Origin: Promethearchaeia archaeon
Lineage (GTDB): Archaea > Asgardarchaeota > Lokiarchaeia > Sigyniarchaeales > SOKP01
Assembly (NCBI GenBank): GCA_029856105.1
Contig: JAHQWH010000220.1
Location: 1-14,608, forward strand
Length of the DNA stretch: 14,608 nucleotides
Reading direction: 5' to 3'
Part shown: piece after piece, positions 2 through 14,608 of the stretch
How positions within the stretch are numbered: the first letter of the stretch is position 1
Layout: the number at the start of each line of letters is the position of its first letter
Notes under the pieces: model-generated
What the model was told of the DNA's origin: nothing
What the model saw: only the letters and a program-made list of their open reading frames with translations
The model's database searches: none
Program-made: the position numbers and the translations under genes

Positions 2-211
2 AAAGGAAAACTACTTCGCGCGGCTTTTATCACTTTTACGATTGCTGCTGTTTTAGATTCATTACTTGGTACGATTTTTGAAGTTCCTACTGACCCCTTG
101 TTAGCAATTATGGTAGTTATAACTCGATTATTATTAATAATCAGTGCGCTCGAATTTTATGGAGGGTTTATCCTTCCAAGTTGGATGCACGCTATATTCA
201 CTAAAAAATAA
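2..211 (+). CDS. 3' end of a multi-pass membrane protein (5'-truncated by the window edge)
   Basis: Frame is open from the window edge to TAA at 209-211: KGKLLRAAFITFTIAAVLDSLLGTIFEVPTDPLLAIMVVITRLLLIISALEFYGGFILPSWMHAIFTKK*. It has two hydrophobic helices and is followed directly by a T9 run. Not in the ORF track. Confidence 0.8.
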   Translation, partial: KGKLLRAAFITFTIAAVLDSLLGTIFEVPTDPLLAIMVVITRLLLIISALEFYGGFILPSWMHAIFTKK

Positions 212-326: not shown

Positions 327-863
327 ATGGACGATTACACAGATTTAGATTGGAATTGGGAATTTTACGAAGAACTTGTTGATGATGTAGACGAAAATAA
401 AAATATCATTCAATGTATTTCGTGTGGAAAGTGCGTAGGTGATTGTCCTGCTGCGAAAGTATCTAACTTTAATAGTAGAAAAATTATTAAGAAAGTTCTT
501 CGCGGCGATAAAAGCGTTTTGAAAGATTCTGATATTTGGTATTGCTATTTATGCGAAAGATGTAAACGAGTTTGTCCTAAAGAAAATATAAACATCCCCT
601 TACTTATAATCAACCTTAGGAACGAATCTTTTAGAAAAGGTTTTGGACCAAAATATAGCGATTTGAGAAAATACGTCGAGATGTCGGAGAGATTTTTAAC
701 CCAAGGTACTGTAGTAGAAGACCCATTGGGAGGTAATTTATCACAGGAGCGAGTTGATGAAATCTACGAGATATGTAACTTTGCACGAATAAAATATGTG
801 TTTAAAGCAAGTAAAACCGACCAAAGCAAAAAAAACAAGAAAACTAAGAAGAAATCGAAATAG
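327..863 (+). CDS. hdrC: Heterodisulfide reductase subunit C-like 2[4Fe-4S] protein (178 aa; start revised from 144 to ATG 327)
   Basis: Motifs CISCGKCVGDCP and IWYCYLCERCKRVCP, with the typical 'NSRKII...G...L....IW.C..C..C...CP..I.I..LI..LRN' spacing. It lies directly upstream of a CCG-domain gene. The 144 start overlaps the upstream CDS and runs through non-coding T-rich sequence. Confidence 0.85.
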   Translation: MDDYTDLDWNWEFYEELVDDVDENKNIIQCISCGKCVGDCPAAKVSNFNSRKIIKKVLRGDKSVLKDSDIWYCYLCERCKRVCPKENINIPLLIINLRNESFRKGFGPKYSDLRKYVEMSERFLTQGTVVEDPLGGNLSQERVDEIYEICNFARIKYVFKASKTDQSKKNKKTKKKSK

Positions 864-896
864 AAATTAAAAAAAAGATTAATTGAATAGGATAAA

Positions 897-1910
897 ATGA
901 ATTTTAATAATTTAGCTTTAGATTTACAAGAAATTAAAAATAAATACCCCGATAATCCTTTAGAATTTTTTAAAGGTAAGAAGTTATGCCTATTTAAAGC
1001 TTGTTTAGAAAAGTATTTTCCAGGCGTAAGATGGGGGTTTTATGATCTCTTAGAAGAACTACAGTTAGATGTGGCTATATGTAACGATCAATCTTGCTGC
1101 AGTGGAACGTTTTTTCAGAGGAATCTAATAACAAGAGCTCAATTTTCCGCAATTAACGAGCGGAACCTTAGCGAAATGAACCAGCAGGCAGATATCGTGT
1201 TAGTTAGTTGCAACGGATGCTATAATTCCCTTCTCAGAGGGCGAGACTTCTTAGAAAATACAGAAGTGAGAAATAAAACCCAAAACATCCTGAATTCAGT
1301 TAAAAAAAAAGCTGATGGGGAAAAATACCCTGGAATGTACGACATATTAGAAAATCCAAAACTTAAATTAGTTCACGATTTAGATTTCATATACTTAATC
1401 CGAGATGACATTCTCAACGCTCTAAAATTCGACTTAAGAGGCTTAAAAGTGGCCGTCCATTACGGTTGTCATTACTTAAATTTATCGAGAGATAAGAAAA
1501 ACGTGGAAAATTACTTAGGGAGTAAAACTAAATTAGAGGAGCTCATTGAGCTTTTTGGGGGGGTTCCCGTCGATTACCAAGAAAGAGAAAGTTGTTGCGG
1601 ATGGGGGGCCAGTCAATTGTTAATAAATCCTCGCGAAGCTCTTAAAATCACTTATAACAAGTTAAAAAGCGCGGAAAACGTTGAAGCAGACTTTATTCTA
1701 ATGCCTTGCCCAACCTGTTTATATACTTTAAGTAAACCAGAATATCGAGAAAAGATTGAAAAGTGGTTCAACGAAAAGCTAGAAATACCTACGATTCATC
1801 TTAACGAATTAATCGCTATTTTGCGAGGGTGCGAAGAAGAACGCTGTATTACCTTGCGCAGAAAAACTCCGCGTCTTGAGGAAATATTTGAAATTATAAC
1901 ACAGCAATAA
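897..1910 (+). CDS. hdrB: Heterodisulfide reductase subunit B-like protein with two CCG domains
   Basis: Two complete five-Cys motifs: C36-x30-CC-x36-CxxC (LFKAC...QSCCSG...VSCNGC) and C191-x41-CC-x36-CxxC (VAVHYGCH...SCCGWG...MPCPTC). Lies 33 nt after hdrC. Confidence 0.87.
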   Translation: MNFNNLALDLQEIKNKYPDNPLEFFKGKKLCLFKACLEKYFPGVRWGFYDLLEELQLDVAICNDQSCCSGTFFQRNLITRAQFSAINERNLSEMNQQADIVLVSCNGCYNSLLRGRDFLENTEVRNKTQNILNSVKKKADGEKYPGMYDILENPKLKLVHDLDFIYLIRDDILNALKFDLRGLKVAVHYGCHYLNLSRDKKNVENYLGSKTKLEELIELFGGVPVDYQERESCCGWGASQLLINPREALKITYNKLKSAENVEADFILMPCPTCLYTLSKPEYREKIEKWFNEKLEIPTIHLNELIAILRGCEEERCITLRRKTPRLEEIFEIITQQ

Positions 1911-1946
1911 TTTCATTCAAACTATTCTTATTTATTAAAAGAAAAT

Positions 1947-2342
1947 TCACATTTTTTCAATAGCTTGCCTTGGACAAGAATCGATACATAATAAACACCC
2001 TATACATTTTTCAAACGACAATTCTAAGCGTTCATCCATGTTAAAATGCAGAGCGTCGGTTGGACAAAGAGATATGCAAGCACCACAATCAATACACTTA
2101 TCGTCGTCAACGATGACCCTTCCCTTTTTATTTACAACTACTTCGTTTCTTTGTAAAGCGTCAGTAATGAGTTTCATTTTATTTTCAGGAACATCTAACA
2201 AGAAGTTCACGCCACTCGTTCCCGTAGAAAACTTTAGAATGTTAAACGTAATATCGTATTTTAAAATCTCGTTTATGATTTTCGAATAGTCGTCAATGTC
2301 TCTTATAGCTCCGAACGGTAAGGTGCAATTAATTACAGTCGT
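1947..2342 (-). CDS. NIL-domain 2[4Fe-4S] ferredoxin, iron-sulfur partner of aspartate-semialdehyde sulfurtransferase (MA1822/MJ0099-like); start uncertain
   Basis: Motifs CIDCGACISLCP and CIGCLLCIDSCP. The frame stays open upstream of the track start (2210) to 2348 and encodes TTVINCTLPFG...YDITFNILKFSTGTSG, which contains the NIL motif. It would be 131 aa from ACG 2342. Abuts the DUF39-CBS gene. Confidence 0.85.
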   Translation of the reverse strand, partial: TTVINCTLPFGAIRDIDDYSKIINEILKYDITFNILKFSTGTSGVNFLLDVPENKMKLITDALQRNEVVVNKKGRVIVDDDKCIDCGACISLCPTDALHFNMDERLELSFEKCIGCLLCIDSCPRQAIEKM

Positions 2343-2343
2343 A

Positions 2344-3816
2344 TTACATCAACTCCTCCGAAGTAATTATTCCAATTACTCTCTTACTTTCATCAACAAC
2401 CGGTAATGCTGAAATATTGTTATTTTTCATTCGTCTAGCAGCAAGTCCAATTGGTTCGTTGTCTGTAGTAGTAATTACTTTTTTTGTTATAATGTCATTT
2501 AATTCCCTTTTATTTAGAGCAATTGCTTTGGTCACATCAAAACTAGTCACGATACCTTTTAGGTAGTTTTCTCGATCTGTAATAACGATGTGATTCATGT
2601 TTTCTTCTATAATTTTCTCAGCAACCTTCTTTAAATCACAATCATCAAAACATTTGATCGCTTGCCTTTTTAAATCCTTTACAAATTTTAACTCGGACGA
2701 TTGTTTCATTGGTTTATAAATTGTGTTTGTAGGGAGCGTCTCTGCGGGAGGGTTTAAGAAAAATTTGCCTTCTTGAATCCAATTTTTAAGTGTTTCAGCA
2801 ATCTTACGCGCGTAATATAGGGACGATAACGAAGAACATTTGACTTTTTTTCCATTAATCTCAACATACCCACTTTCTAATTCTTTATAACTAACCTGTT
2901 TTAATACAGGTCTGTCCCTTCTAGGTACACCATAATCAACTATGTCTGTTAAAATATCCTCGTTTTTGATTGCGGTCTTCTTAGCCAAACCTTCGTTTAA
3001 AATTGGAATCGGAATTCCAACCCCTACAAACATACTAGTGCCGTACTTTTCGTAGGTAACACCTCGCAAATATTCAGAACTCATCTGTTTTAGATCTCCT
3101 TTAAGAAATAACGTTCCAAATCTGTTTGAGGGGTTATGTTGAGTCCCTTCGCCAATAGCATACCCTATACCACCCCCAAGAAAGATTCTCGTACCTAACC
3201 CAATTGTTTCGTAGTCAGGGTCGTTACTCAGAGGGCTTAAATATCCTGCTCCTGCGTAATGGGCGTTGCCAAATTTTGGCAGTAGCTTACCCATATAAGT
3301 GTATAAGGTTTTATCAGAACTGTTTACCGCACATACATATCGCTGGTAAGCATTTCTTGGGTTGCATAATATGGCTTGATTGATGCTATCGAGGGTGACT
3401 TCCGTATCCACTTCAGCTAAAGGATAACAATCAGTAGTGTTTGAATTTCCTCTAAGCCTTATCGGTTTTCCAGAAACGAGATCTTCGATAACATGACCCC
3501 CTCCGTATTCGAACGGTCTAACATCCGCCATTCTGGTGCACCCAATATAACAATCGACGGCCGCGTTCCCATGATAAGCGTGAACATCGTTTAACCATAG
3601 GTGTTCGAATTTTATTGGAGGGTCAGAGTGCCCAAAATTTAAAAAAGCGCCGCTAGAACACATAGGTCCAAAGGTTCCTGTGGTAACTACATCAATCTCT
3701 TCAGCAGCTACTTTAACGCCTCTTTTTTCAACTATATTTATCATTTCTTCCGCGGTGACAACTACTACACTACCATTATTGATTTTTTCGTTTATTTCTG
3801 CATAAGTTTTCGTCAA
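2344..3816 (-). CDS. L-aspartate semialdehyde sulfurtransferase (homocysteine biosynthesis; DUF39 plus CBS pair, MA1821/MJ0100-like)
   Basis: Motifs KTYAEINEKI, DVVTTGTFGPMCSSGA (Cys53), YGGGHVIEDL, TDCYP (Cys130), NPRNAYQ, TIGLGTRIFLGG and GVGIPIPILNE, then two C-terminal CBS motifs (GIVTSFD; LPVVD...GIITSEE). TTG start preceded by GGTGA. Confidence 0.95.
   Translation of the reverse strand: MTKTYAEINEKINNGSVVVVTAEEMINIVEKRGVKVAAEEIDVVTTGTFGPMCSSGAFLNFGHSDPPIKFEHLWLNDVHAYHGNAAVDCYIGCTRMADVRPFEYGGGHVIEDLVSGKPIRLRGNSNTTDCYPLAEVDTEVTLDSINQAILCNPRNAYQRYVCAVNSSDKTLYTYMGKLLPKFGNAHYAGAGYLSPLSNDPDYETIGLGTRIFLGGGIGYAIGEGTQHNPSNRFGTLFLKGDLKQMSSEYLRGVTYEKYGTSMFVGVGIPIPILNEGLAKKTAIKNEDILTDIVDYGVPRRDRPVLKQVSYKELESGYVEINGKKVKCSSLSSLYYARKIAETLKNWIQEGKFFLNPPAETLPTNTIYKPMKQSSELKFVKDLKRQAIKCFDDCDLKKVAEKIIEENMNHIVITDRENYLKGIVTSFDVTKAIALNKRELNDIITKKVITTTDNEPIGLAARRMKNNNISALPVVDESKRVIGIITSEELM
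2353..2359 (-). promoter_or_regulatory. Shine-Dalgarno-like GGAGGAG embedded in the last codons of the DUF39-CBS gene
   Basis: Minus strand reads TCG GAG GAG TTG ATG TAA T ACG, immediately before the NIL-ferredoxin frame. Confidence 0.6.
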
Positions 3817-3820
3817 CTAA

Positions 3821-3825
3821 TCACC
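3821..3825 (-). promoter_or_regulatory. Ribosome-binding site (GGTGA) for the TTG start at 3816
   Basis: Minus strand reads GGTGA-TTAG-TTG. Confidence 0.6.
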
Positions 3826-3920
3826 GATTCTTTAATCTTCTAACCAATGGGAAAAGAAAGGTTATATTAAAATAATTAATTATATGCTATTTAAAAATAT
3901 TTACATGTAAAATATGCGAT

Positions 3921-3960
3921 TACAGCATTATTAATGATTTTATAGCATTTTTAATGATTT
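3921..3960. repeat. 20-bp tandem direct repeat (2 copies) in a divergent promoter region; candidate operator pair
   Basis: TACAGCATTATTAATGATTT and TATAGCATTTTTAATGATTT are 18/20 identical. The core CATTA-T-TAATG is palindromic. Confidence 0.65.
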
Positions 3961-4029
3961 TCAATAGTTTTTTCATAACTATCTAAAAATAAATAAGTCT
4001 AATTTTTAGAAAAAATTATAGAAAATAGT

Positions 4030-4938
4030 ATGGAAAAAAAGAATAATCACGCTCCATCATCTAAGCAGAAGTTAATAGCAAATATCCTATTAATATCCAC
4101 AACTATTCTCTGGGGCACAACATTTATAATTACAAAAAACCTCACTCAAGAAGTACCTATTTTCTTATACTTAGGTTTACGGTTTTCTTTCGCAATCATT
4201 GGTTTTCTTCCATATTTTATTCACATAAAAAAAATTAACAAGAAAATTATTTTATATGGTGCTTTAACCGGCTTAATTTATTGTTTTGCAATTATTTTTC
4301 AAACGTTTGGTCTTCAAACTACTACAGCGGGTAAGGCAGGTTTTATCACGGGTTTAAGTACTATCATGGTGCCTTTTTTAACCTGGTTATGGTTTAAAAA
4401 AACGTTTAAAAAGAGAGTTTGGCTAGCCGTAATTATTTCTGTGATTGGTATGGCCTTATTATTATTAGAGGGAGAATCAGGTGTCGTAGGGGGAGATTTT
4501 TTAGTCCTTATTTGCGCTGTTTTTTGTGCGTTTCATATCGTATTAACCGATAAATTCGTTCGACTTGTAGATGTTTACCTCTATTCGATCGTTCAACTAA
4601 CTACAATTAGTTTGTTTTGTTTTGGAAGTTCATTTCTATTTAATGAGACATTCGATTTAATAAACGTGGGTTTACCTTTTTGGTTGATTATGATTTATCT
4701 GGGGGTTATCGTTACAGCTGGAACTTTTTTCTTTCAAAATTGGGGGCAACAACATCAAGGGCCATCCCAAACGGCAATAATCTTTACATTAGAACCCGTA
4801 TTTGCCGTAATTTTTGCCTCTTTCATTATTGGTAATGAAACAATGAGTATAATGGGTTGGTTAGGATGCACTTTAATTTTTATTGCAATTTTGATTACTG
4901 TTCTAAAAAATAACGCAAACATTAATAAAAGAGATTAG
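4030..4938 (+). CDS. EamA/DMT family transporter
   Basis: About 10 hydrophobic segments in two EamA-like halves: LWGTTFII.K, LGLRF, GLQTTTAGKAGFITGL, GDFLVLICA, TAIIFTLEPVFA, GC.LI. Confidence 0.93.
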   Translation: MEKKNNHAPSSKQKLIANILLISTTILWGTTFIITKNLTQEVPIFLYLGLRFSFAIIGFLPYFIHIKKINKKIILYGALTGLIYCFAIIFQTFGLQTTTAGKAGFITGLSTIMVPFLTWLWFKKTFKKRVWLAVIISVIGMALLLLEGESGVVGGDFLVLICAVFCAFHIVLTDKFVRLVDVYLYSIVQLTTISLFCFGSSFLFNETFDLINVGLPFWLIMIYLGVIVTAGTFFFQNWGQQHQGPSQTAIIFTLEPVFAVIFASFIIGNETMSIMGWLGCTLIFIAILITVLKNNANINKRD

Positions 4939-4950
4939 TGAAATTATAAT

Positions 4951-6843
4951 TTGGAAGAGCTTGAATTTAAATTACAAAACATAAAAGTAGAACCTAAACG
5001 CGTAAATGTTAGAACTCTAAGCGACATTTCGATTACTTTTTCAGTAAATCAAGATATTCCTAATGGCTCTTCTATAATTTTTAGATTCCGTGGAGGAAGA
5101 AACAATAAAAACGATTGGTATTACTTACAGCCTTACGACCCGCAAATGAAAGGGTACGTTAAATTGAACCTAAGCTCGCAAGTAAAATTAGTTCCAGTAC
5201 TTATTTCTGGAAAAGAACTTTTAATTAAATATATCATCTGCGAGGAAAATGGAATTAAATCTGGAACTGTTTTTCACTTCAATATTTTTAAAACTCTAGT
5301 TCAATCGTTAATAGAACAAAATAAAAAGGTAGAGGTCTTAATCAAATTACGAAATCAAAAGTTAATCACTCTAGATATTTGTCCCACTATTAATGTCATT
5401 AACACGAAATTTGATCACGTTACAATAATTTGCCCCTCAATCGTTAGTGCCAACAAGGAGTTCAAAATATTAATAAGGGTTGAGGATAAATTTAATAATT
5501 TAATAAAAAACTTCTCCGATAGCATACAATTGTACAAATCAACAAATTCTAAAGATAGAGATTACATAGCAAGTTTAGAATTTAAGAAAGAAAACGAGGG
5601 AATTCTTAAGAAATGCGATTTTAAAATTTCTGAATCTGGCACTTACTCAATCGAAGCTTTTTGCAACGGTTCTTACTTTAAATCTAACCCCATCATATGT
5701 CTTGATAAACCTAACGAAAGGAATGTATTCTGGGGCTATATTCATGGACATTCTAATAAGAGCGATGGAATGAGAGATGTAGAGGAATATTTTAAAAATC
5801 TAATAAATGCGGGATTAAATTTTGGGACGGTAACAGACCACGATCATAAATGGGAAACATCTGACGAAGATTTTGAAGATATTAAGCGAACTGTAAAAAA
5901 ATATCACTCAGAAGAATTCGTTTCTTTTTTCGGATACGAATATGGATATTGGTACACTGGATATGGTGATATTTGTATATATCATTACGATGAGGATCTG
6001 CCGATTTTAAGGTCTGATGTTAACAAGTATAATTCTACAAAAAAATTAGTAAAAAATCTGAAATCTCATAAAGGAAAAGTTTTGTTGATTGCTCATCATA
6101 CTGCTTTAAGGCCAGGTTATCGTAATTGGGATTACTTTGATAATTCCATTGAAAAATTAGTTGAAATATATTCTACTTGGGGGAATCAAGAATATTCCTA
6201 TAAGGATGGTAATCCTCTCCCTCCCCGTTATAAATTTTTTGGCTATGGAAAGTATGCTAGAAAGCGGGGACCAATTTTAGAAAAAAAAGGTTCTTTTGTT
6301 CAAGACGCTTTAAAGAGAGGATATAAATTGGGTTTTACAGCCGGCGGAGACGATCATTTTGGCATTTACCCTTCCGGTCCAGGCGATCCCGATAATGGCA
6401 TTTATCCCTCTGGAATCATGGCGGTATGGGCAAAACAGTTAACGAAAGAATCGATATGGAACGCTTTACTTAATCGTCGTTGTTACGGCTCAACGGGACC
6501 AAGAGTTATTATAGACTTTCACTTAGCTCAATTTTTCATGGGAGACATTATAGATTTAGAAACATTTTCTCAATTACGGTCTAAAAGAGAAATTATTATG
6601 AAAGTAATAAGCCCAATTAAAATTAATAAAATAGAATTAATCAGAAATAATTCAATCTATAAAGCTATTGATGTGAATTCAACTAGAATAGAATTCAACT
6701 TAATTGACAACGAGAATTTTAAAGAATTTTCTCTAACTCACATAAATAATAAAGAAAAGTTTGCTTTTTATTATCCTCGGATTATTCTTGAGGATGAAAA
6801 TATGGCATGGGCAAGCCCCATATGGCTGATTAATAAATTGTAG
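4951..6843 (+). CDS. DUF3604 / CehA-McbA-like PHP-fold metallohydrolase with beta-rich N-terminal extension
   Basis: Motifs FWGYIHGHS..SDG, TDHD, GYEY, AHH, LVEIYSTWG, GFTAGGDDH, AVWA..LTKESIWNAL..RRCYGSTG and C-terminal AWASPIW. No signal peptide. Starts 12 nt after the EamA stop. Confidence 0.8.
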   Translation: MEELEFKLQNIKVEPKRVNVRTLSDISITFSVNQDIPNGSSIIFRFRGGRNNKNDWYYLQPYDPQMKGYVKLNLSSQVKLVPVLISGKELLIKYIICEENGIKSGTVFHFNIFKTLVQSLIEQNKKVEVLIKLRNQKLITLDICPTINVINTKFDHVTIICPSIVSANKEFKILIRVEDKFNNLIKNFSDSIQLYKSTNSKDRDYIASLEFKKENEGILKKCDFKISESGTYSIEAFCNGSYFKSNPIICLDKPNERNVFWGYIHGHSNKSDGMRDVEEYFKNLINAGLNFGTVTDHDHKWETSDEDFEDIKRTVKKYHSEEFVSFFGYEYGYWYTGYGDICIYHYDEDLPILRSDVNKYNSTKKLVKNLKSHKGKVLLIAHHTALRPGYRNWDYFDNSIEKLVEIYSTWGNQEYSYKDGNPLPPRYKFFGYGKYARKRGPILEKKGSFVQDALKRGYKLGFTAGGDDHFGIYPSGPGDPDNGIYPSGIMAVWAKQLTKESIWNALLNRRCYGSTGPRVIIDFHLAQFFMGDIIDLETFSQLRSKREIIMKVISPIKINKIELIRNNSIYKAIDVNSTRIEFNLIDNENFKEFSLTHINNKEKFAFYYPRIILEDENMAWASPIWLINKL

Positions 6844-7193: not shown

Positions 7194-7303
7194 ATCTATT
7201 TCTTCTCCTATAGCTACTTAATTGAACAATTCCAATTTCTTCAGATATACTTATTGACTATCGTATGTAGAAGTTTTAAATAACAATTAAACGAATATTG
7301 ATT

Positions 7304-8743
7304 ATGAAAGAAAATATCGAATTACCAGAAGAATTAGTTTCGGCAAAAACAAAATTAAGCTTCGGTATAGGGGGTTTAGCTAACGGCTTATTAAACATGC
7401 TGGTGTTCGGAAATCTTACTTTTTTCTATCAAATAAAACTTGGTGCAGATGCGGGCTTATTAATGATTGGTTGGTTGATATTTGCCATCTGGAACACGTT
7501 AAACGACCCAATTGCCTCTTACATTGTCGACAATACGAGAACTAAAATTGGTAGAAGGATCCCCTATATTCGATTCGGTTCAATTTTCTATGGATTAGCT
7601 TTCATATTCTGTTGGTTTCCGATATCTCCCTTGGATAACCAAATAGGCTTATTTATCAATTTTATAGCGGCTCTTTTTTTGTTAGACACGATGTATACGC
7701 TCGTTGGAGTGTGTTTCTTTTCGCTTCCTAACGAAATTGCTGTGACGGCTAAACAGCGCGCAAGTATTGGCGTATATAGTGGAATAATAGGTTTGATCAA
7801 TATAGTACTTGGCTTAGTCATACCTATTGTTTTACTTACTGGTCAAGAAGGAACTTATCCTTTGTTCGTACCTGTAATTTTAACAATTGGGCTTGGAAGT
7901 TCGTTGCTATTATTTATCACGTCTTTCGGAATCAAAGAAAACCTGTTTGCTCAGCTCCAAGAGCACGAAAAATTCATAGAAGGGTTGAAATTGACTTTAA
8001 AAAATAAGCCATTTTGGCTATTAATGATTCCCGCTTTTCTGCTTGGTATAATCTACCCTATTGTCTCAACGGGACTTCTCTACTATATTGATTATCTCAT
8101 ACCAGGGCAAGATCCGATTTACATGTTACTTGCCTTGATTATAGGAATTATCCTTGGAATGATTGTAAATTTGAAAAAAATCACAAAATGGCAGCCTAAA
8201 AAGACTATGATGATGGACGCATATTTAGTTACCGCAGGATTAGTTCTACTATTTATAATTGGATATAATTCAATGTTATTTGCAATTCCATTTCTATTTA
8301 TTGGAATAGGATACGCAGGTATGTCGATCGCCAATTTTGCATTAATGGGTGACGCAATTGACAACGACGAGCTCATAACAGGAAAACGGAGAGAAGCAAT
8401 TTACGGTGGAGTCAACGCAATTGTAACTAAACCCGCACTTTCCATCGCTAACGCACTGTTCTTGGCTATCATTGCCGGTTTTGGGTTTAAAGCTCCAATA
8501 ATAGTAGGAGGCGTAGATGTAAAACAAGCTCAAGATTCTATTGCTCTAAAAGGCATATTAATCGCATTTTGTATCGTCCCGGCAATTCTCTTGGTTTTAA
8601 GCGCTCTAAATCTACGATGGTACCCCTTGGATGGTCCTGAATGGCTAAAAAAGAAGAAGTACGTAATGGAACTTCACGAACAAAAGGAAAAAGAATACCT
8701 TAAATCCCTATCAGAAAAGTCCAAACCTAAAAAAACAGAATGA
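7304..8743 (+). CDS. MFS transporter, glycoside-pentoside-hexuronide (GPH/MelB-like) family
   Basis: Motifs WNTLNDPI...IVDNTRTKIGRRIPY and GDAIDNDELITGKRREAIYGG, with about 12 TM segments. ATG 7304 preferred over TTG 7298. Confidence 0.93.
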   Translation: MKENIELPEELVSAKTKLSFGIGGLANGLLNMLVFGNLTFFYQIKLGADAGLLMIGWLIFAIWNTLNDPIASYIVDNTRTKIGRRIPYIRFGSIFYGLAFIFCWFPISPLDNQIGLFINFIAALFLLDTMYTLVGVCFFSLPNEIAVTAKQRASIGVYSGIIGLINIVLGLVIPIVLLTGQEGTYPLFVPVILTIGLGSSLLLFITSFGIKENLFAQLQEHEKFIEGLKLTLKNKPFWLLMIPAFLLGIIYPIVSTGLLYYIDYLIPGQDPIYMLLALIIGIILGMIVNLKKITKWQPKKTMMMDAYLVTAGLVLLFIIGYNSMLFAIPFLFIGIGYAGMSIANFALMGDAIDNDELITGKRREAIYGGVNAIVTKPALSIANALFLAIIAGFGFKAPIIVGGVDVKQAQDSIALKGILIAFCIVPAILLVLSALNLRWYPLDGPEWLKKKKYVMELHEQKEKEYLKSLSEKSKPKKTE

Positions 8744-9237: not shown

Positions 9238-9363
9238 TGAAACTTATCTTAATTTTTAATCACATAAGAAGTCTAGATAAAAATGTAAAAAATTTCAGAT
9301 TCTAATTATCGATTGACTTCTGATATCTAAAAAAAACCTAAAAAAATTTAAGTGATTAAAAAA

Positions 9364-12000
9364 ATGAAAATGAATAAAAAAAATAAACTACTATTTCTCT
9401 TCGTTGGAGTCACGGTTATAAGCTTGTTATTGGTACCAGTTATGGCTGCACCGAGCAGTAGAGTCGATAAAGTTAATTTAACTCGGGAAGATTCAAAAAT
9501 TTCTGCCTTTAATAAATTAGAATTCGGACCTCGCGAATTTTTTGCAGAAGGAGACTCGTTAGTTTCGGTAATAGTTGAAACTACTAATAATGATTATGAT
9601 TTGTTAACAACTCTAGTAGAATCCTTAGGAGGAATAATTAATATAGAATATAATAATATCAACGGAGTTTCTATGAATATACCTGCCAGCGCACTTTTAG
9701 CTTTAGCAGAAAGCCCACTAGTAGCTCGTGTATTTAAAGATGAATTTAAAGAGCTTAATGTCCTTAAAGAAGAAATAAATACTTATACGCTAATGGCAGA
9801 TGCAGACATTGTTGCTACTCCAATAAATTTAGAAGTATCTGAAGAATATCCATCAACTTATACAAATTCATATCTTACAGATGCTGAAGCTATCTGGGCC
9901 GAGACTGATGCTGGAGATGGAGTTAAGGTTGCAATTATAGATACAGGATGCTGGAACGAATCTTGGGAAGTTCCGGATGAACCTGGCAATATTCGCTATC
10001 CTTGGTACTGGGATGCTGTTTATGACGGGATAGACCTAAGTTATGATGTAGGTGACCCTGATTATGAAGGATATGGTAATCCAATGAATCATTACCATGG
10101 TACTGCTTGTGCAACGCTTGTTGCAGCAGCAGCAAAAATAACATTTAGTCCTGGTCATCCGTGGGGAACAGCAATAGCGACTCATGATCCTGATGGAACA
10201 GAGATCGATGATGAAGGGTATATTTCTACTCTATCTTATGGTATAGCACCAAATGCATCAATCTATGCTGTTAAAATCTTTGATCATACTGGTGCAGGTG
10301 TTCCATCTTCAATTGTTATGCAGGGTATCGATGCTGCGATTACTGAAGGCGTAGATGTAATAAGCATGAGTCTTGGTGGGGGCGTTGGAGCTCCTGGAGT
10401 AGACCCTTCAGATTTGCTGGTTGATGTGGCTACAGAAGAGGGTATTACTGTAGTTATTTCTGCTGGCAATGAAGGACCAGCTCCACTTAAAGTAGGTTCT
10501 CCAGGTACGGCAAAATCAGCTATAACTGTTGGTGCTGCGATGGACCCTATTCATGAACGTGTATTTGGTGATATTGCTATTGGTCCTGGTTATGGATATT
10601 ATTATTACCCTCATGAAGAAAAATTCATTGCTGACTTTAGTTCTCGAGGTCCTACTTCAGACGGACGAAACAAACCTGATGTGGTTGCTACAGGATCCTG
10701 GACGTTCTTTAGCGCAGCGCCTTCAGATTGGCCATCCACAATAAGATTAGGCGGAGGAACATCGTTCTCATGTCCACAAGTAGCTGGTGAGGCTGCATTA
10801 TTGATCGCCTATATAAAAAATGAAGGACTAGACCTTGATCCTTTAGATGTAAAGGAAGTAATTATGGAAGGTGCCACGCCATTAGAGGGATACGAAGCTT
10901 TCGAGCAAGGTGCTGGATATATCAATTGTTTTAACTCTTTAGAACTTATTAAAGAGATGGCAGAAGAGGAAGATAAGGATAAATGTTGCCATCGATGCAG
11001 ATGCAGATGGAATCATCATTTCGGATCTATGTGGTTCCCACCCCTCGAAATGCTTGATTTTGATGATGGCGTAGCTACGGTTAAAGATATTACCTTAGAA
11101 CCTGGATTGTTTGAGTATTTCAATTTTTGGATCAGCGAAGAAGTTGATTCTATAAAAATTACTCTATCTGATGTTAGTTTTGATGATAATCAAAATTTTG
11201 TTTTTGGAGGAGATGCTGGAGTAATATATCTTAGTACTGCCGTTCGAGAAGGAATTGATGATTACTACTTTGGAAGTCCCTCAGTGGGTCCCGAATTGAT
11301 TTTTGGTGATGCTGTATTTCAGATATCATCTGATGTTCATGTTCAACCAGGTGTAGTGCGATTAGTTCTTGGAGGCGATTTTTCCTCTTTTGGTAACGTA
11401 TATATCGGAGAGATGACCATTGAAGTAGTGAAAACCCAGGGATTTAAATGCGGGAGATGGGTAGGTATATTTAATTCTGGAGTTGATGTTGAAGAAGCTC
11501 AAGTTTCTCTTTACGAAGGAGGAGTTATAAAAGAACGTGGAAAAGTGAAAGAAGGTGAATACGATCTCTATTCATTTACTATCCCAGAATTAGGTCATGA
11601 ACAATTAGCAATTGTAGAACTTTCATGGTTCCGCGATTGGTCTAAATGGGCTACAAGTGACCTTGACATATTAATTTTTAAATTGTTTCCTGACGGCTAT
11701 GAATTAGTAAATGTTGACGGTGCTACAGGCAGATCTCCTGAATTTGTTCAATTAACTGAACCAGGTTCATATTTAATTATGATTGATGGTTATCAGGTTT
11801 ACTTCGACAAAAAAGAACGTTATTCGCTTGAAATTATGTATTTCTCGAGTATGATCTCTATTTGGGATTCTGAAATATTTGCTCTTGATAGCTGGATAAC
11901 ACTTATTAGAATGCCAAGACGAAAGCATGGATTAGCAGTCATATGGATTCATGATACCTTGTTTGGTTATAGGTATATGGGCGATATTATTAAAGTTTAA
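9364..12000 (+). CDS. Secreted S8 subtilisin-like serine protease with propeptide and two C-terminal PPC/jelly-roll-like domains
   Basis: Signal peptide (MNKKNKLLFLFVGVTVISLLLVPVMA) and an I9-like propeptide. Catalytic motifs VAIIDTG (Asp), HGTACA (His), SAGNEG (oxyanion Asn), FSSRGP..DGRNKPDV and GGTSFSCP (Ser). C-terminal 'VELSW...SDLDI...ATGRSPE...PGSYLIMIDGY'. The start could be GTG 9352, ATG 9364 or ATG 9370. Confidence 0.95.
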   Translation: MKMNKKNKLLFLFVGVTVISLLLVPVMAAPSSRVDKVNLTREDSKISAFNKLEFGPREFFAEGDSLVSVIVETTNNDYDLLTTLVESLGGIINIEYNNINGVSMNIPASALLALAESPLVARVFKDEFKELNVLKEEINTYTLMADADIVATPINLEVSEEYPSTYTNSYLTDAEAIWAETDAGDGVKVAIIDTGCWNESWEVPDEPGNIRYPWYWDAVYDGIDLSYDVGDPDYEGYGNPMNHYHGTACATLVAAAAKITFSPGHPWGTAIATHDPDGTEIDDEGYISTLSYGIAPNASIYAVKIFDHTGAGVPSSIVMQGIDAAITEGVDVISMSLGGGVGAPGVDPSDLLVDVATEEGITVVISAGNEGPAPLKVGSPGTAKSAITVGAAMDPIHERVFGDIAIGPGYGYYYYPHEEKFIADFSSRGPTSDGRNKPDVVATGSWTFFSAAPSDWPSTIRLGGGTSFSCPQVAGEAALLIAYIKNEGLDLDPLDVKEVIMEGATPLEGYEAFEQGAGYINCFNSLELIKEMAEEEDKDKCCHRCRCRWNHHFGSMWFPPLEMLDFDDGVATVKDITLEPGLFEYFNFWISEEVDSIKITLSDVSFDDNQNFVFGGDAGVIYLSTAVREGIDDYYFGSPSVGPELIFGDAVFQISSDVHVQPGVVRLVLGGDFSSFGNVYIGEMTIEVVKTQGFKCGRWVGIFNSGVDVEEAQVSLYEGGVIKERGKVKEGEYDLYSFTIPELGHEQLAIVELSWFRDWSKWATSDLDILIFKLFPDGYELVNVDGATGRSPEFVQLTEPGSYLIMIDGYQVYFDKKERYSLEIMYFSSMISIWDSEIFALDSWITLIRMPRRKHGLAVIWIHDTLFGYRYMGDIIKV

Positions 12001-12206: not shown

Positions 12207-13016
12207 CTACATTGTTTTAATAATTTCTGCAATTTTAATTTTTAACCCATCTTCTGCTGCAATTATCGTATTTATATCAGTCTTCTCTTTTAACTTTTCG
12301 ATTTGGCTTGGTATGAAATTTTTTGGGGAAAAAGGGCTGTCCATATAGCTTCCAAAATGAGTGATTAATAGCCCCTTAAGCGCGGGCTTAATTTTGTTTA
12401 AATAGGGTATCACTTCGTCAGTACATAAATGGCGACGACAAACTACGGAGTCTGGTCTAAGCAAATTCAGCACCAATATGTCAACTCCCGAGAATTGTTC
12501 GGAGAATCCTTCAAATACCCTCGTATCGCTGGAGAATGCGATCCTATAATCCTTCAGATTAATTTTCACCCCAAATCCTTCGACTTGAGAGTGTACGACT
12601 TTAGTACCGATTATTTCAGCTCCTTTGTAATTAAAAGCATCTCCAGCCTTGAAAGAAACGATCGTTTCGAGCATGTCTTGGTGATATTTGGGCACGAATT
12701 TTAACACCTCTTCGGTCGTTATCAGAGTTCCTTTTTTAAAATAATCGTAGTTTTTATCGTGAAGGCGTTCTCGAGAGGCTTCGATTATCGCGCACAAATC
12801 GTTAAAATGATCTATATGAATGTGAGTTACGATAAATAATTCTGTTTTCGTAGGGTCTTCGTTGTATTGATTGATCCGTACGATGGCTCCGGGTCCAGGG
12901 TCTATGTGCGTTTGAATTCCGTTGAATTTATACAAAATACCACCCGTAGCTCGATATTGAGTTCTGATGTGGTGCCGTCCACCTCCAGAACCTAGAATTA
13001 CTAATTCGTCGTCCAT
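12207..13016 (-). CDS. Metallo-beta-lactamase-fold hydrolase (RNase Z/PhnP-like archaeal family)
   Basis: Motifs ILGSGGG, IDPGPGA, THIHIDH (HxHxDH), VVHS, FSSDT, RHL and ITHFG. Confidence 0.9.
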   Translation of the reverse strand: MDDELVILGSGGGRHHIRTQYRATGGILYKFNGIQTHIDPGPGAIVRINQYNEDPTKTELFIVTHIHIDHFNDLCAIIEASRERLHDKNYDYFKKGTLITTEEVLKFVPKYHQDMLETIVSFKAGDAFNYKGAEIIGTKVVHSQVEGFGVKINLKDYRIAFSSDTRVFEGFSEQFSGVDILVLNLLRPDSVVCRRHLCTDEVIPYLNKIKPALKGLLITHFGSYMDSPFSPKNFIPSQIEKLKEKTDINTIIAAEDGLKIKIAEIIKTM

Positions 13017-13058
13017 AATTTAAAATTATAAAAATGAGTTAATAAGCAAAATTAAAGG

Positions 13059-13580
13059 TTAAAAATTTCTTTTTTTCATTAATTCTTCAACTAGAATATC
13101 AAATACTAAGTCTATATTATCGCCTGTTTTTGAGGAAGTTTTCACGAATTGGATCATATTAAACGCATTTTTTATACTATTGGCAGATTCGTCGTCGACA
13201 GCAATAGCTTCCTCAAGATCGCGTTTAGTTCCAATGAGAACTATGGGAAGGTCTAAATCGTGCATTCTGATAATATTTACCCAATTCAGAATATCGTTTA
13301 TTTTTGGCATTTTGGTTAAGTCAAAGAGTAAAAGCGCTCCTTTTGCGCCCATAATAAAGCTTTCGAGCAAGTGCCTAAAGCGTTTCTGACCACCTAAATC
13401 CCACAATTGAAGCGTACAGTTCCCTATATTTTCGTAGATTACCTGTTTTATGAAGAAATCAACTCCTACTGTTGCTATTGTAGACTCATCGAAAGTACCG
13501 TCTACATATCTTCGGAGTAGCGTAGTTTTACCGACTCCGCCATTTCCTCCCACAATTATCTTAAAAACATAGTTCTTCAA
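13059..13580 (-). CDS. Rab-like small GTPase (Ras superfamily; 173 aa from TTG 13580)
   Basis: G1 GNGGVGKT, G2/RabF1 TVGVDF, RabF2/G3 LQLWDLGGQ, RabF3-like RFRHLL, RabF5-like LLFDLT, G4 TKRD and G5 TSSKTG. No C-terminal Cys. The start was revised because GGTGA (13590-13586) lies 5 nt before TTG 13580. Confidence 0.93.
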   Translation of the reverse strand: MKNYVFKIIVGGNGGVGKTTLLRRYVDGTFDESTIATVGVDFFIKQVIYENIGNCTLQLWDLGGQKRFRHLLESFIMGAKGALLLFDLTKMPKINDILNWVNIIRMHDLDLPIVLIGTKRDLEEAIAVDDESANSIKNAFNMIQFVKTSSKTGDNIDLVFDILVEELMKKRNF

Positions 13581-13690
13581 AAACTTCACCGCGTTAAGCG
13601 CAATTTTGCATCTGGTATTTAAAATCAACCATATTATAATAAATAATAAGAATTTGTACTTTTATTTTATTATATCACATTTACATTCTT

Positions 13691-14608
13691 TCAAGATATC
13701 AATTCATTATTTAGTATATCGTCGATTTGTTTTAATATTAGAGACAAGTTCTTGAAAAGAGCCTTTTGTATTTTAATTTTAGAAACATTATTGTTGTTTT
13801 TTTCCAGTATGCCAATAGTAATTGATTTGGAGATCTTATGAGCTTTTTTCGCTAATTCCGCTAGTTTCAAATGATTTTTATCGGAATTGCCAAATTTTTT
13901 TATCGGAACTTCGAAAGGGATTTTAAAAATGTGTCTTGAGCTTTTTTTTATTTTAACTTGTTTTGTCATTAACGGCGAGTTTAGAATTGCTGATAAGTAA
14001 TAAGCTTCGTTTAGGTCGTCTGTTGAGTAAAAACTTAAATCTCCCGTTACAATAAAATCTCCTTGAACGACTGCTGCGTTGACAACTGATCCCGAATTGT
14101 TGTAAACTACTTTAATTTTGGATGTTTGCCTTTTATTTATTAACTTAGACCATCTGTTAAGGTTATCCATCAAGGATTCGTTTTTAGTCGTTTCTTTTTT
14201 ATAGTTCAAATAGATTCCGTTTATCTTATCGTAGAAAACCTTAGCCTTCTTTCCTAACGAGGAATAATCAAAACTTAGGTTCCCTCTATTTAGCGGTAAA
14301 AAGACGTCGTAATAACCGTAAACAAAGAATTTCACCAGCTCTGTGCTTTTGATTACTTTAAATGCGTATTCTTTTTCGACTAACTCGTCTTTAAATTCTA
14401 TATTATTCCAAGGTTCTTTTGCTCTCTTAAAAATTCGGATGTCTGGACTAATTTTTACCAGAGAGGTATCGTATTTTTCACAATTTATAAATATTAAATT
14501 CCTGGGATTTAAATCTGCCCCTTTATGGAAGAGCTTTTTGTATTCGCTTACTTTAATTGGAATTAGTTTTTTATAATCTTCTTCTGTGATCAATTTGTTA
14601 GTATAAGT
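13691..14608 (-). CDS. C-terminal (TaqI_C-like target recognition) part of an N6-adenine DNA methyltransferase / type IIG restriction-modification enzyme; 5'-truncated
   Basis: Frame is open to the window edge (TYTNKLITEEDY...). FHKGADLNPRNLIF and KVVYNNSGS..NAAVV...IV...EAYYLSAILNS..M...PIKKF....HLKLAELA match the specificity-domain pattern. The catalytic motifs lie outside the window. Confidence 0.7.
   Translation of the reverse strand, partial: TYTNKLITEEDYKKLIPIKVSEYKKLFHKGADLNPRNLIFINCEKYDTSLVKISPDIRIFKRAKEPWNNIEFKDELVEKEYAFKVIKSTELVKFFVYGYYDVFLPLNRGNLSFDYSSLGKKAKVFYDKINGIYLNYKKETTKNESLMDNLNRWSKLINKRQTSKIKVVYNNSGSVVNAAVVQGDFIVTGDLSFYSTDDLNEAYYLSAILNSPLMTKQVKIKKSSRHIFKIPFEVPIKKFGNSDKNHLKLAELAKKAHKISKSITIGILEKNNNNVSKIKIQKALFKNLSLILKQIDDILNNELIS

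Follow-up and report, generated by a model that had tools for sequence, protein, structure and literature searches.

An HdrC-HdrB pair abutting the homocysteine operon of an Asgard archaeon: probably inherited neighbours rather than a sulfur-assimilation module

Does a heterodisulfide reductase-like gene pair that ends 36 nt from an operon for homocysteine synthesis from sulfide belong to the same pathway, or are the two only neighbours? The question is raised by a contig of 14,608 nt from a Promethearchaeia archaeon (JAHQWH010000220.1, here G000:C220; this whole 14.6-kb contig of an AT-rich Asgard genome is the window that we analysed). In it, hdrC and hdrB run tail to tail against the genes of a NIL-ferredoxin and a DUF39-CBS protein, the putative subunits of L-ASST (L-aspartate semialdehyde sulfurtransferase), from which a transporter gene of the EamA family diverges. 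A preliminary description of the sequence had proposed that these genes form a sulfur-assimilation module. That proposal fared poorly: the linkage proved to be restricted to one family, and hdrCB is kept in three genomes that lack L-ASST. We think it probable that hdrCB and L-ASST are independent of each other and have stood side by side since the ancestor of one Asgard family, and that their adjacency, as well as the presence of EamA nearby, is inherited synteny. The gene families themselves are known ones; a functional link between hdrCB and L-ASST is unproven, and their juxtaposition is probably coincidental. The genes in question are arranged as follows, and the two spacers have the lengths and orientations given in the preliminary description.

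327-863, forward strand: hdrC-like gene; 178 aa, two [4Fe-4S] motifs
897-1910, forward strand: hdrB-like gene; 337 aa, two CCG domains
1911-1946: AT-rich spacer of 36 nt between the convergent stops of hdrB and the NIL-ferredoxin gene
1947-2342, reverse strand: NIL-ferredoxin gene; 131 aa, N-terminal domain with NIL motif followed by a 2x[4Fe-4S] ferredoxin
2344-3816, reverse strand: DUF39(HcyBio/COG1900)-CBS gene; 490 aa, TTG start, HcyBio domain and CBS pair
3817-4029: divergent intergenic region of 213 nt between DUF39-CBS and EamA
4030-4938, forward strand: transporter gene of the EamA/drug/metabolite transporter (DMT) family; 302 aa, two EamA repeats

We mapped the corresponding loci of relatives by tblastn with the window proteins, using species-representative genomes of varying completeness (genomes, contigs and loci are numbered G, C and L below; the host family f1 consists of genera g1 and g12-g16). 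The pair hdrC-hdrB was found tail to tail with NIL-ferredoxin/DUF39-CBS in 36 species genomes from six genera, all of the host family, with HdrB identities of 53-93%; three more loci of the family are interrupted by contig ends. The gap between hdrB and the NIL-ferredoxin gene varies in these relatives from ~15 nt to ~1.9 kb, and in some genera it has taken up genes encoding an AAA_31 ATPase, a small ferredoxin or an aldo-keto reductase. Outside the family, we examined 20 L-ASST loci of other Asgard families and found no CCG gene within 8 kb of any of them (tblastn with the window HdrB and the 23 other CCG open reading frames (ORFs) of the host genome). We also scanned another 80 L-ASST loci across Archaea (11 from the host family and 69 others) with a hidden Markov model (HMM) of HdrB that we had built. 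It matched nine of the 11 host-family loci, the other two ending too early, and two of the 69 non-family loci, at distances of 2.5 kb and 7 kb, so that none of the 69 has the gene abutting L-ASST. The linkage to be surveyed in relatives is thus real within the family and absent outside it. As a positive control we used COG2122 (NF003323), the third component known for the DUF39 pathway; it adjoins L-ASST in 12 or more Asgard genomes from outside the family, and its distribution tracks L-ASST by family. COG2122 was also found in 28 of the 29 other host-family genomes, which rules out that HdrCB replaces it in this family; it was not found in the host genome (92% complete), where its absence, given its presence in the rest of the family, is likely due to incomplete assembly.

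Within the family, the adjacency of hdrCB and L-ASST is unexceptional, because the wider synteny, comprising the genes for an MBL-fold protein, a Ras-like GTPase, a ~300-aa protein and EamA, is likewise kept across most of the genera. Since hdrCB and L-ASST are convergent, they should be separate transcripts, and in a comparison of 17 species no 8-mer reached a frequency of one half or more in the hdrC upstream regions and in the DUF39 ones as well (a crude test in AT-rich DNA). A complex prediction of HdrC (residues 1-159) and HdrB with the DUF39 core (1-372) gave a score of 0.01 against a mark of 0.32, which is evidence neither way.

Natural deletions bear on the same question. G010, G018 and G020 (91-98% complete) belong to one subclade, in which HdrB is 84-87% identical, and DUF39-CBS and NIL-ferredoxin are missing from all three, at the syntenic locus and genome-wide; G010 has no DUF39-family gene at all. 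The absence may reflect a single loss event. All three genomes keep hdrCB and EamA at the syntenic place, and their hdrB retains every cysteine and shows a ratio of nonsynonymous to synonymous substitution rates (dN/dS) of 0.04-0.07, at a dS above 1.2, which is near saturation. As hdrCB is kept under strong purifying selection where L-ASST is gone, the enzyme is maintained there without it. Neither Cys_Met_Meta_PP nor MetE was found in the L-ASST-less genomes, which are probably auxotrophic or use other homocysteine routes; this says nothing on HdrCB.

What, then, do the two units encode? HdrC contains two [4Fe-4S] motifs of the form CxxCxxCxxxCP (CISCGKCVGDCP and CYLCERCKRVCP), whose eight cysteines are invariant in 20 sequences and align to methanogen HdrC (PDB 5ODC_C). 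Conservation among relatives (tblastn) spans residues 1-159 and starts at the ATG at 327, and the lysine-rich tail is not conserved. GTG 144, which we considered as an alternative start of hdrC, was rejected on account of where this conservation begins. In HdrB, PF02754 (CCG) is matched twice (81 bits), with ligand cysteines C36/67/68/105/108 in the first set and C191/233/234/271/274 in the second, as aligned to methanogen HdrB; all ten canonical cysteines are invariant in 30 orthologues. The cluster cysteines are therefore as intact as the preliminary description had it, for all HdrC motifs and all ten HdrB positions. Both proteins score below the equivalog level: HdrC has 67-89 bits with the best NCBIfam hdrC models (top 88.6 against a cut-off of 270), and HdrB misses the cut-offs of NF041780 (135.2 against 450) and TIGR03288 (130.4 against 345), its HMMER alignments to solved methanogen HdrB chains reaching ~77-97 bits. 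Judging from the conserved ligands, we predict that hdrCB encodes an intact HdrBC-type disulfide reductase module.

A near counterpart with solved structures is the methanogen HdrABC-MvhAGD complex (PDB 5ODC, 7BKB, 8RVU), which has the same ten-cysteine HdrB with two CCG domains and the same two-motif HdrC, colinear with the window proteins over their whole length. The window pair differs from it in its low scores, in an N-terminal extension of HdrB (~30 aa relative to methanogen HdrB) with an additional Cys31, and in having no adjoining hdrA or mvhD. We note that Cys31 is invariant in HdrB of the host family, where Cys62, Cys312 and Cys317 are mostly conserved. Hdr-like proteins are also used in sulfur chemistry outside methanogenesis, namely in the sulfur-oxidising sHdr systems (sHdrAB1B2C1C2 plus LbpA), but the window contains no sHdrA, no second HdrB/HdrC pair and no gene for a lipoate-binding protein. 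A Pfam/NCBIfam profile search of the window proteins found no hdrA or mvhD within the 14.6 kb, and the gene upstream of hdrC encodes a hydrophobic protein without a family match, both in agreement with the preliminary description. An orthologue of this upstream gene also precedes hdrC in relatives, with an Arf-like GTPase gene between them in most; it is part of no Hdr system.

The term orphan, which had been used for the pair, holds at the locus and fails genome-wide. The host genome (3.66 Mb in 238 contigs, 92% complete, 6% contaminated) contains 44 CCG-domain matches, located in 23 ORFs beyond the window HdrB. HdrA-like matches number 23 and fall in at least 12 regions, and there are 11 MvhD domains. 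Neither McrA (in the host genome) nor ComA (in five genomes of the genus) was found, and on these grounds the host appears to be a non-methanogen with a large Hdr repertoire, as had been supposed. The names of close homologues and the presence of Ras/Arf-type GTPases agree with an Asgard host. Several of the HdrA genes and four MvhD genes carry in-frame TGA codons (contigs C132, C11, C194, C175 and C57) and probably encode selenoproteins; Asgard selenoproteomes, including part of this Hdr repertoire, have already been described (PMC11227280).

In the convergent operon, DUF39-CBS, the sole DUF39-family gene in the host genome, matches PF01837 (HcyBio) with 484.8 bits over model positions 1-349 and the CBS model with 71.8 bits; among solved structures it is closest to the CBS pair of MJ0100 (PDB 3KPB/3KPC, E = 6e-23). 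Its Cys53 and Cys130, which do not vary among 25 sequences, were matched to Cys54 and Cys131 of MA1821 through the published numbering (PMC12068725), rather than through an alignment with MA1821. The gene directly downstream encodes the NIL-ferredoxin, in which the eight ferredoxin cysteines are invariant in 21 sequences. Its N-terminal domain has the motif ITFNILKF, of which FNIL is conserved among relatives, and the AlphaFold2 model gives this domain a beta-alpha-beta-beta-alpha-beta order (predicted local distance difference test score 88.7). The Pfam NIL model did not match the N-terminal 77 aa even at E = 10, and in PDB profile and Foldseek searches matches to the ferredoxin half were the only or the dominant ones. 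By their domain content, the two proteins are classified as putative large and small subunits of L-ASST, of the MA1821/MJ0100 and the MA1822/MJ0099 type, respectively. They share with L-ASST of MA1821/MA1822 (MJ0100/MJ0099) the COG1900/HcyBio domain with two cysteines, the C-terminal MJ0100-like CBS pair, and a translationally coupled small protein with a putative NIL-type domain and a 2x[4Fe-4S] ferredoxin (PMC12068725, PMC5764234), and differ in the start codon of the small subunit (ACG), in COG2122 not being found in the genome, and in the abutting HdrCB.

This start codon is unusual. The reading frame of the NIL-ferredoxin is open up to 2348 without an ATG, GTG or TTG at the expected site, and the start appears to be the ACG at 2342-2340, 1 nt past the DUF39-CBS stop. 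The homologous codon lies within a few nt of that stop. Most species have ATG or TTG there, but three have ACG (the host, G017 and G109) and another three ATA (G022, G016 and G007), which suggests near-cognate initiation or termination-reinitiation coupling; the observation concerns the window, L024, L058 and L034-L036. GTG 2210 was ruled out as the start, since the 44 codons upstream of it are conserved at the protein level and the homologous start is mostly ATG or TTG.

Where the window HdrCB comes from is seen in a search of 1.84 billion cluster representatives, in which HdrB falls into one tight cluster whose next relatives have at most 38% identity. Within the same order, the nearest relatives come from G026, G027, G029, G031 and G033 and have 29-35% identity; HdrCB of G026 is the reciprocal best hit of the window pair. 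In all five genomes, which represent two sister families, hdrC-hdrB is located between genes for a FwdF-like polyferredoxin, a PF04060 iron-sulfur (FeS)/ferredoxin protein and a FwdB-like protein, and a metagenome contig with P0123 has the same hdrC-hdrB-FeS order. A maximum-likelihood tree of 59 HdrB sequences (built from paralogues of the host genome, relatives and unnamed cluster representatives, with a midpoint root; no named sHdrB or methanogen HdrB1/B2 is among them) recovers a host-family clade with support 100/100 on a stem of 1.11 substitutions per site. This clade nests in the Fwd/FeS-linked clade (99/98) as sister to G026 plus P0123 (94/81). The HdrB-type paralogues of the host genome, including the HdrA-adjacent copies, form a separate clade, and longer CCG proteins fall outside both; the window HdrB is thus set apart from the HdrA-linked copies of its own genome. 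The placement of the clade among polyferredoxin/FeS/FwdB-linked HdrCB points to an ancestry in a redox complex and not in sulfur assimilation. The sister-family HdrCB (L038-L042, P0123) are nearest to the window pair in the tree and share its gene order; the window pair is nevertheless only 29-35% identical to them, lacks their neighbours, stands beside L-ASST and has a long stem. We also observed that the cluster of FwdF-like, hdrC, hdrB, FeS and FwdB-like genes is itself conserved, in two arrangements (L038-L042, from G026, G031, G029, G027 and G033, respectively; L087), and looks like an undescribed Hdr/Fwd-like redox module.

Two other readings have to be weighed against independent neighbours. 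According to the first, which we consider unlikely, HdrCB was recruited to the homocysteine pathway in the host family, as a ferredoxin-fed reductase of a persulfide or of an enzyme-S-S-homocysteine disulfide, or as an electron feeder of DUF39. Several observations favour it and so weigh against independence. The adjacency found in 36 genomes and six genera extends to g14, the most divergent genus, where both sides have been rearranged, the wider synteny is gone and only the hdrC-hdrB plus NIL-ferredoxin/DUF39-CBS block is intact, and no genome of the family with visible context has L-ASST without adjoining hdrCB. A functional shift upon relocation would be in keeping with the long stem of HdrB after its departure from the Fwd-like cluster. 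G161 and G178 share one deletion that removed the CBS pair and the entire NIL-ferredoxin gene (not found elsewhere in either genome), leaving the DUF39 core ~40 nt from the hdrB stop (L049:7946-9130; L054:6577-7725); this core is under purifying selection (dN/dS 0.08, with dS ~1.0 near saturation) and therefore needs electrons from another protein, for which HdrCB is one candidate among many ferredoxins. In addition, the literature leaves open how many electrons L-ASST needs (2 or 4) and what kind of sulfur donor it uses (PMC12068725), and PMC5764234, citing Rauch et al., reports a persulfide on the MA1821 cysteine. Recruitment has to contend, however, with convergent units that have unrelated genes (AAA_31 ATPase, ferredoxin, aldo-keto reductase) between them in some genera; with hdrCB that is strongly selected in three L-ASST-less genomes, one of them without any DUF39-family gene; with L-ASST loci that, in other Asgard families and in the remaining archaea examined, have no abutting CCG gene; and with upstream regions that share no motif among the 17 species. 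In addition, the genetically supported partners of L-ASST, in Methanosarcina and Desulfovibrio, are NIL-ferredoxin and COG2122 (PMC5764234), and the latter is present in almost the whole host family (the 28 of 29 genomes above). Slightly more doubtful still is the full scenario, in which HdrBC left the Fwd-like cluster, evolved fast and turned into an accessory to the DUF39 homocysteine synthase, for persulfide or mixed-disulfide reduction or as electron donor, where such reductase chemistry of HdrCB is plausible as a prediction. If true, such an accessory would explain how two species could shed NIL-ferredoxin and CBS with the DUF39 core staying beside hdrB, and it would give non-cubane HdrB clusters their first biosynthetic, non-energy role and the DUF39 pathway a fourth component.

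The other reading, to which we give the least credence, is that HdrCB serves in trans the FeS (PF04060)/FwdB-like module that it left, in one-carbon or energy metabolism. A second, divergent Fwd-like cluster does exist in the host genome (G000:C195:6598-10452, L084), with genes for a 155-aa FeS protein and FwdB-, FwdD- and FwdA-like proteins, an MttB-like gene adjacent to them, and no hdrCB beside the FeS-FwdB'-FwdD'-FwdA' genes. Its FwdB-like protein contains SICQG and LGGHFNM and scores just above its cut-off; the FwdA-like one is below its own. The FeS gene at C195:9985-10452 is the counterpart of the HdrCB-linked FeS protein (42-48% identity) and stands next to the FwdB-, FwdD- and FwdA-like genes, and this, together with the reciprocal best hit in G026 and the FwdF-like/FeS/FwdB-like setting in which the closest HdrCB are always found (five genomes, two sister families, two arrangements), speaks for a partnership in trans. 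Yet an orthologue of the C195 FwdB-like protein was not found in G004, G010 or G012 (83%, 93% and 100% complete), all of which have hdrCB, so a fixed partnership is doubtful; the C195 protein is also no nearer to HdrCB-linked FwdB-like proteins than canonical FwdB is, and the identity of 29-35% to Fwd-linked HdrB is low.

We therefore return to independent neighbours as the preferred reading. What speaks against a dedicated module is the convergent orientation with its inserted genes, the genomes that keep hdrCB but not L-ASST, a pairing not seen elsewhere, upstream regions that have no motif in common, and COG2122 in the family. According to this reading, hdrCB would be a fast-evolved, relocated offshoot of an Asgard HdrCB lineage that moved beside L-ASST in the ancestor of the family. 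The two [4Fe-4S] clusters of HdrC would be reduced by a donor of ferredoxin-like or HdrA/MvhD type whose gene lies elsewhere, and the two non-cubane [4Fe-4S] clusters of HdrB would reduce a disulfide in two one-electron steps, as the intact ligands and the solved methanogen enzyme suggest; the substrate would not be coenzyme M-S-S-coenzyme B in any methanogenic sense. L-ASST, an ordinary representative of the MA1821/MA1822 system, would form homocysteine out of aspartate semialdehyde and sulfide; electrons would enter through its ferredoxin subunit, and CBS and NIL are presumed regulatory domains. For the mechanism of the DUF39 reaction (sulfur donor, electron number, persulfide resolution), a genuine HdrBC partner would be an important clue; a neighbourhood that is likely inherited is in turn a warning that gene adjacency is easily over-read where Asgard lineages are poorly sampled. 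The material gained includes a family-specific, intact, stand-alone HdrCB, natural L-ASST deletions that keep hdrCB, and a natural DUF39 core without its ferredoxin.

The remaining genes of the window are listed here.

2-211, forward strand: 3' end of the upstream gene; hydrophobic protein of ~250 aa, no Pfam family match
4951-6843, forward strand: CehA/PHP-like metallohydrolase gene; 630 aa, CehA/McbA type, weak DUF3604 match
7298-8743, forward strand: MFS_2 transporter gene
9352-12000, forward strand: S8 protease gene
12207-13016, reverse strand: gene of the MBL-fold protein
13059-13628, reverse strand: gene of the Ras-like GTPase
13691-14593, reverse strand: gene without assigned family, ~300-aa product

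The transporter gene had been compared with E. coli EamA (YdeD), an exporter of cysteine and O-acetylserine. Its family membership stands (116.9 bits and two EamA repeats of the DMT superfamily, which both proteins have). With TIGR00950 it scores 79.6 bits against a cut-off of 230, and its link to L-ASST is not conserved: the distance between EamA and L-ASST varies among relatives, and EamA persists in genomes without L-ASST. The likeness is at the family level only, and the product is best described as a predicted generic DMT transporter. The CehA-like gene (4951-6843) follows EamA directly, and this EamA-CehA pair is repeated in several relatives. At the other end of the contig, the trio of genes for the MBL-fold protein, the Ras-like small GTPase and the ~300-aa protein (12207-14593) is syntenic in most genera of the host family.

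Two observations concern sulfur genes elsewhere. G000:C217:2010-3203 is the only Cys_Met_Meta_PP gene (pyridoxal phosphate sulfhydrylase type) that we found; it is present in the host genome and not in four congeners, and may have been acquired recently or stem from contamination. Most genomes of the genus, the host not among them, have a second DUF39 paralogue of 432 aa (L097:3574-7538, which is G018:C5; L098, which is G008:C11) that scores 447.6 with methanogenesis marker 16 (cut-off 363.95), a proposed coenzyme M synthase (PMC12068725). This paralogue is found in a conserved cluster with a 576-aa thiamine diphosphate enzyme (acetolactate synthase/Xsc-like) and a short-chain dehydrogenase/reductase, and the three could act on sulfoacetaldehyde, which would be unexpected in a non-methanogen.

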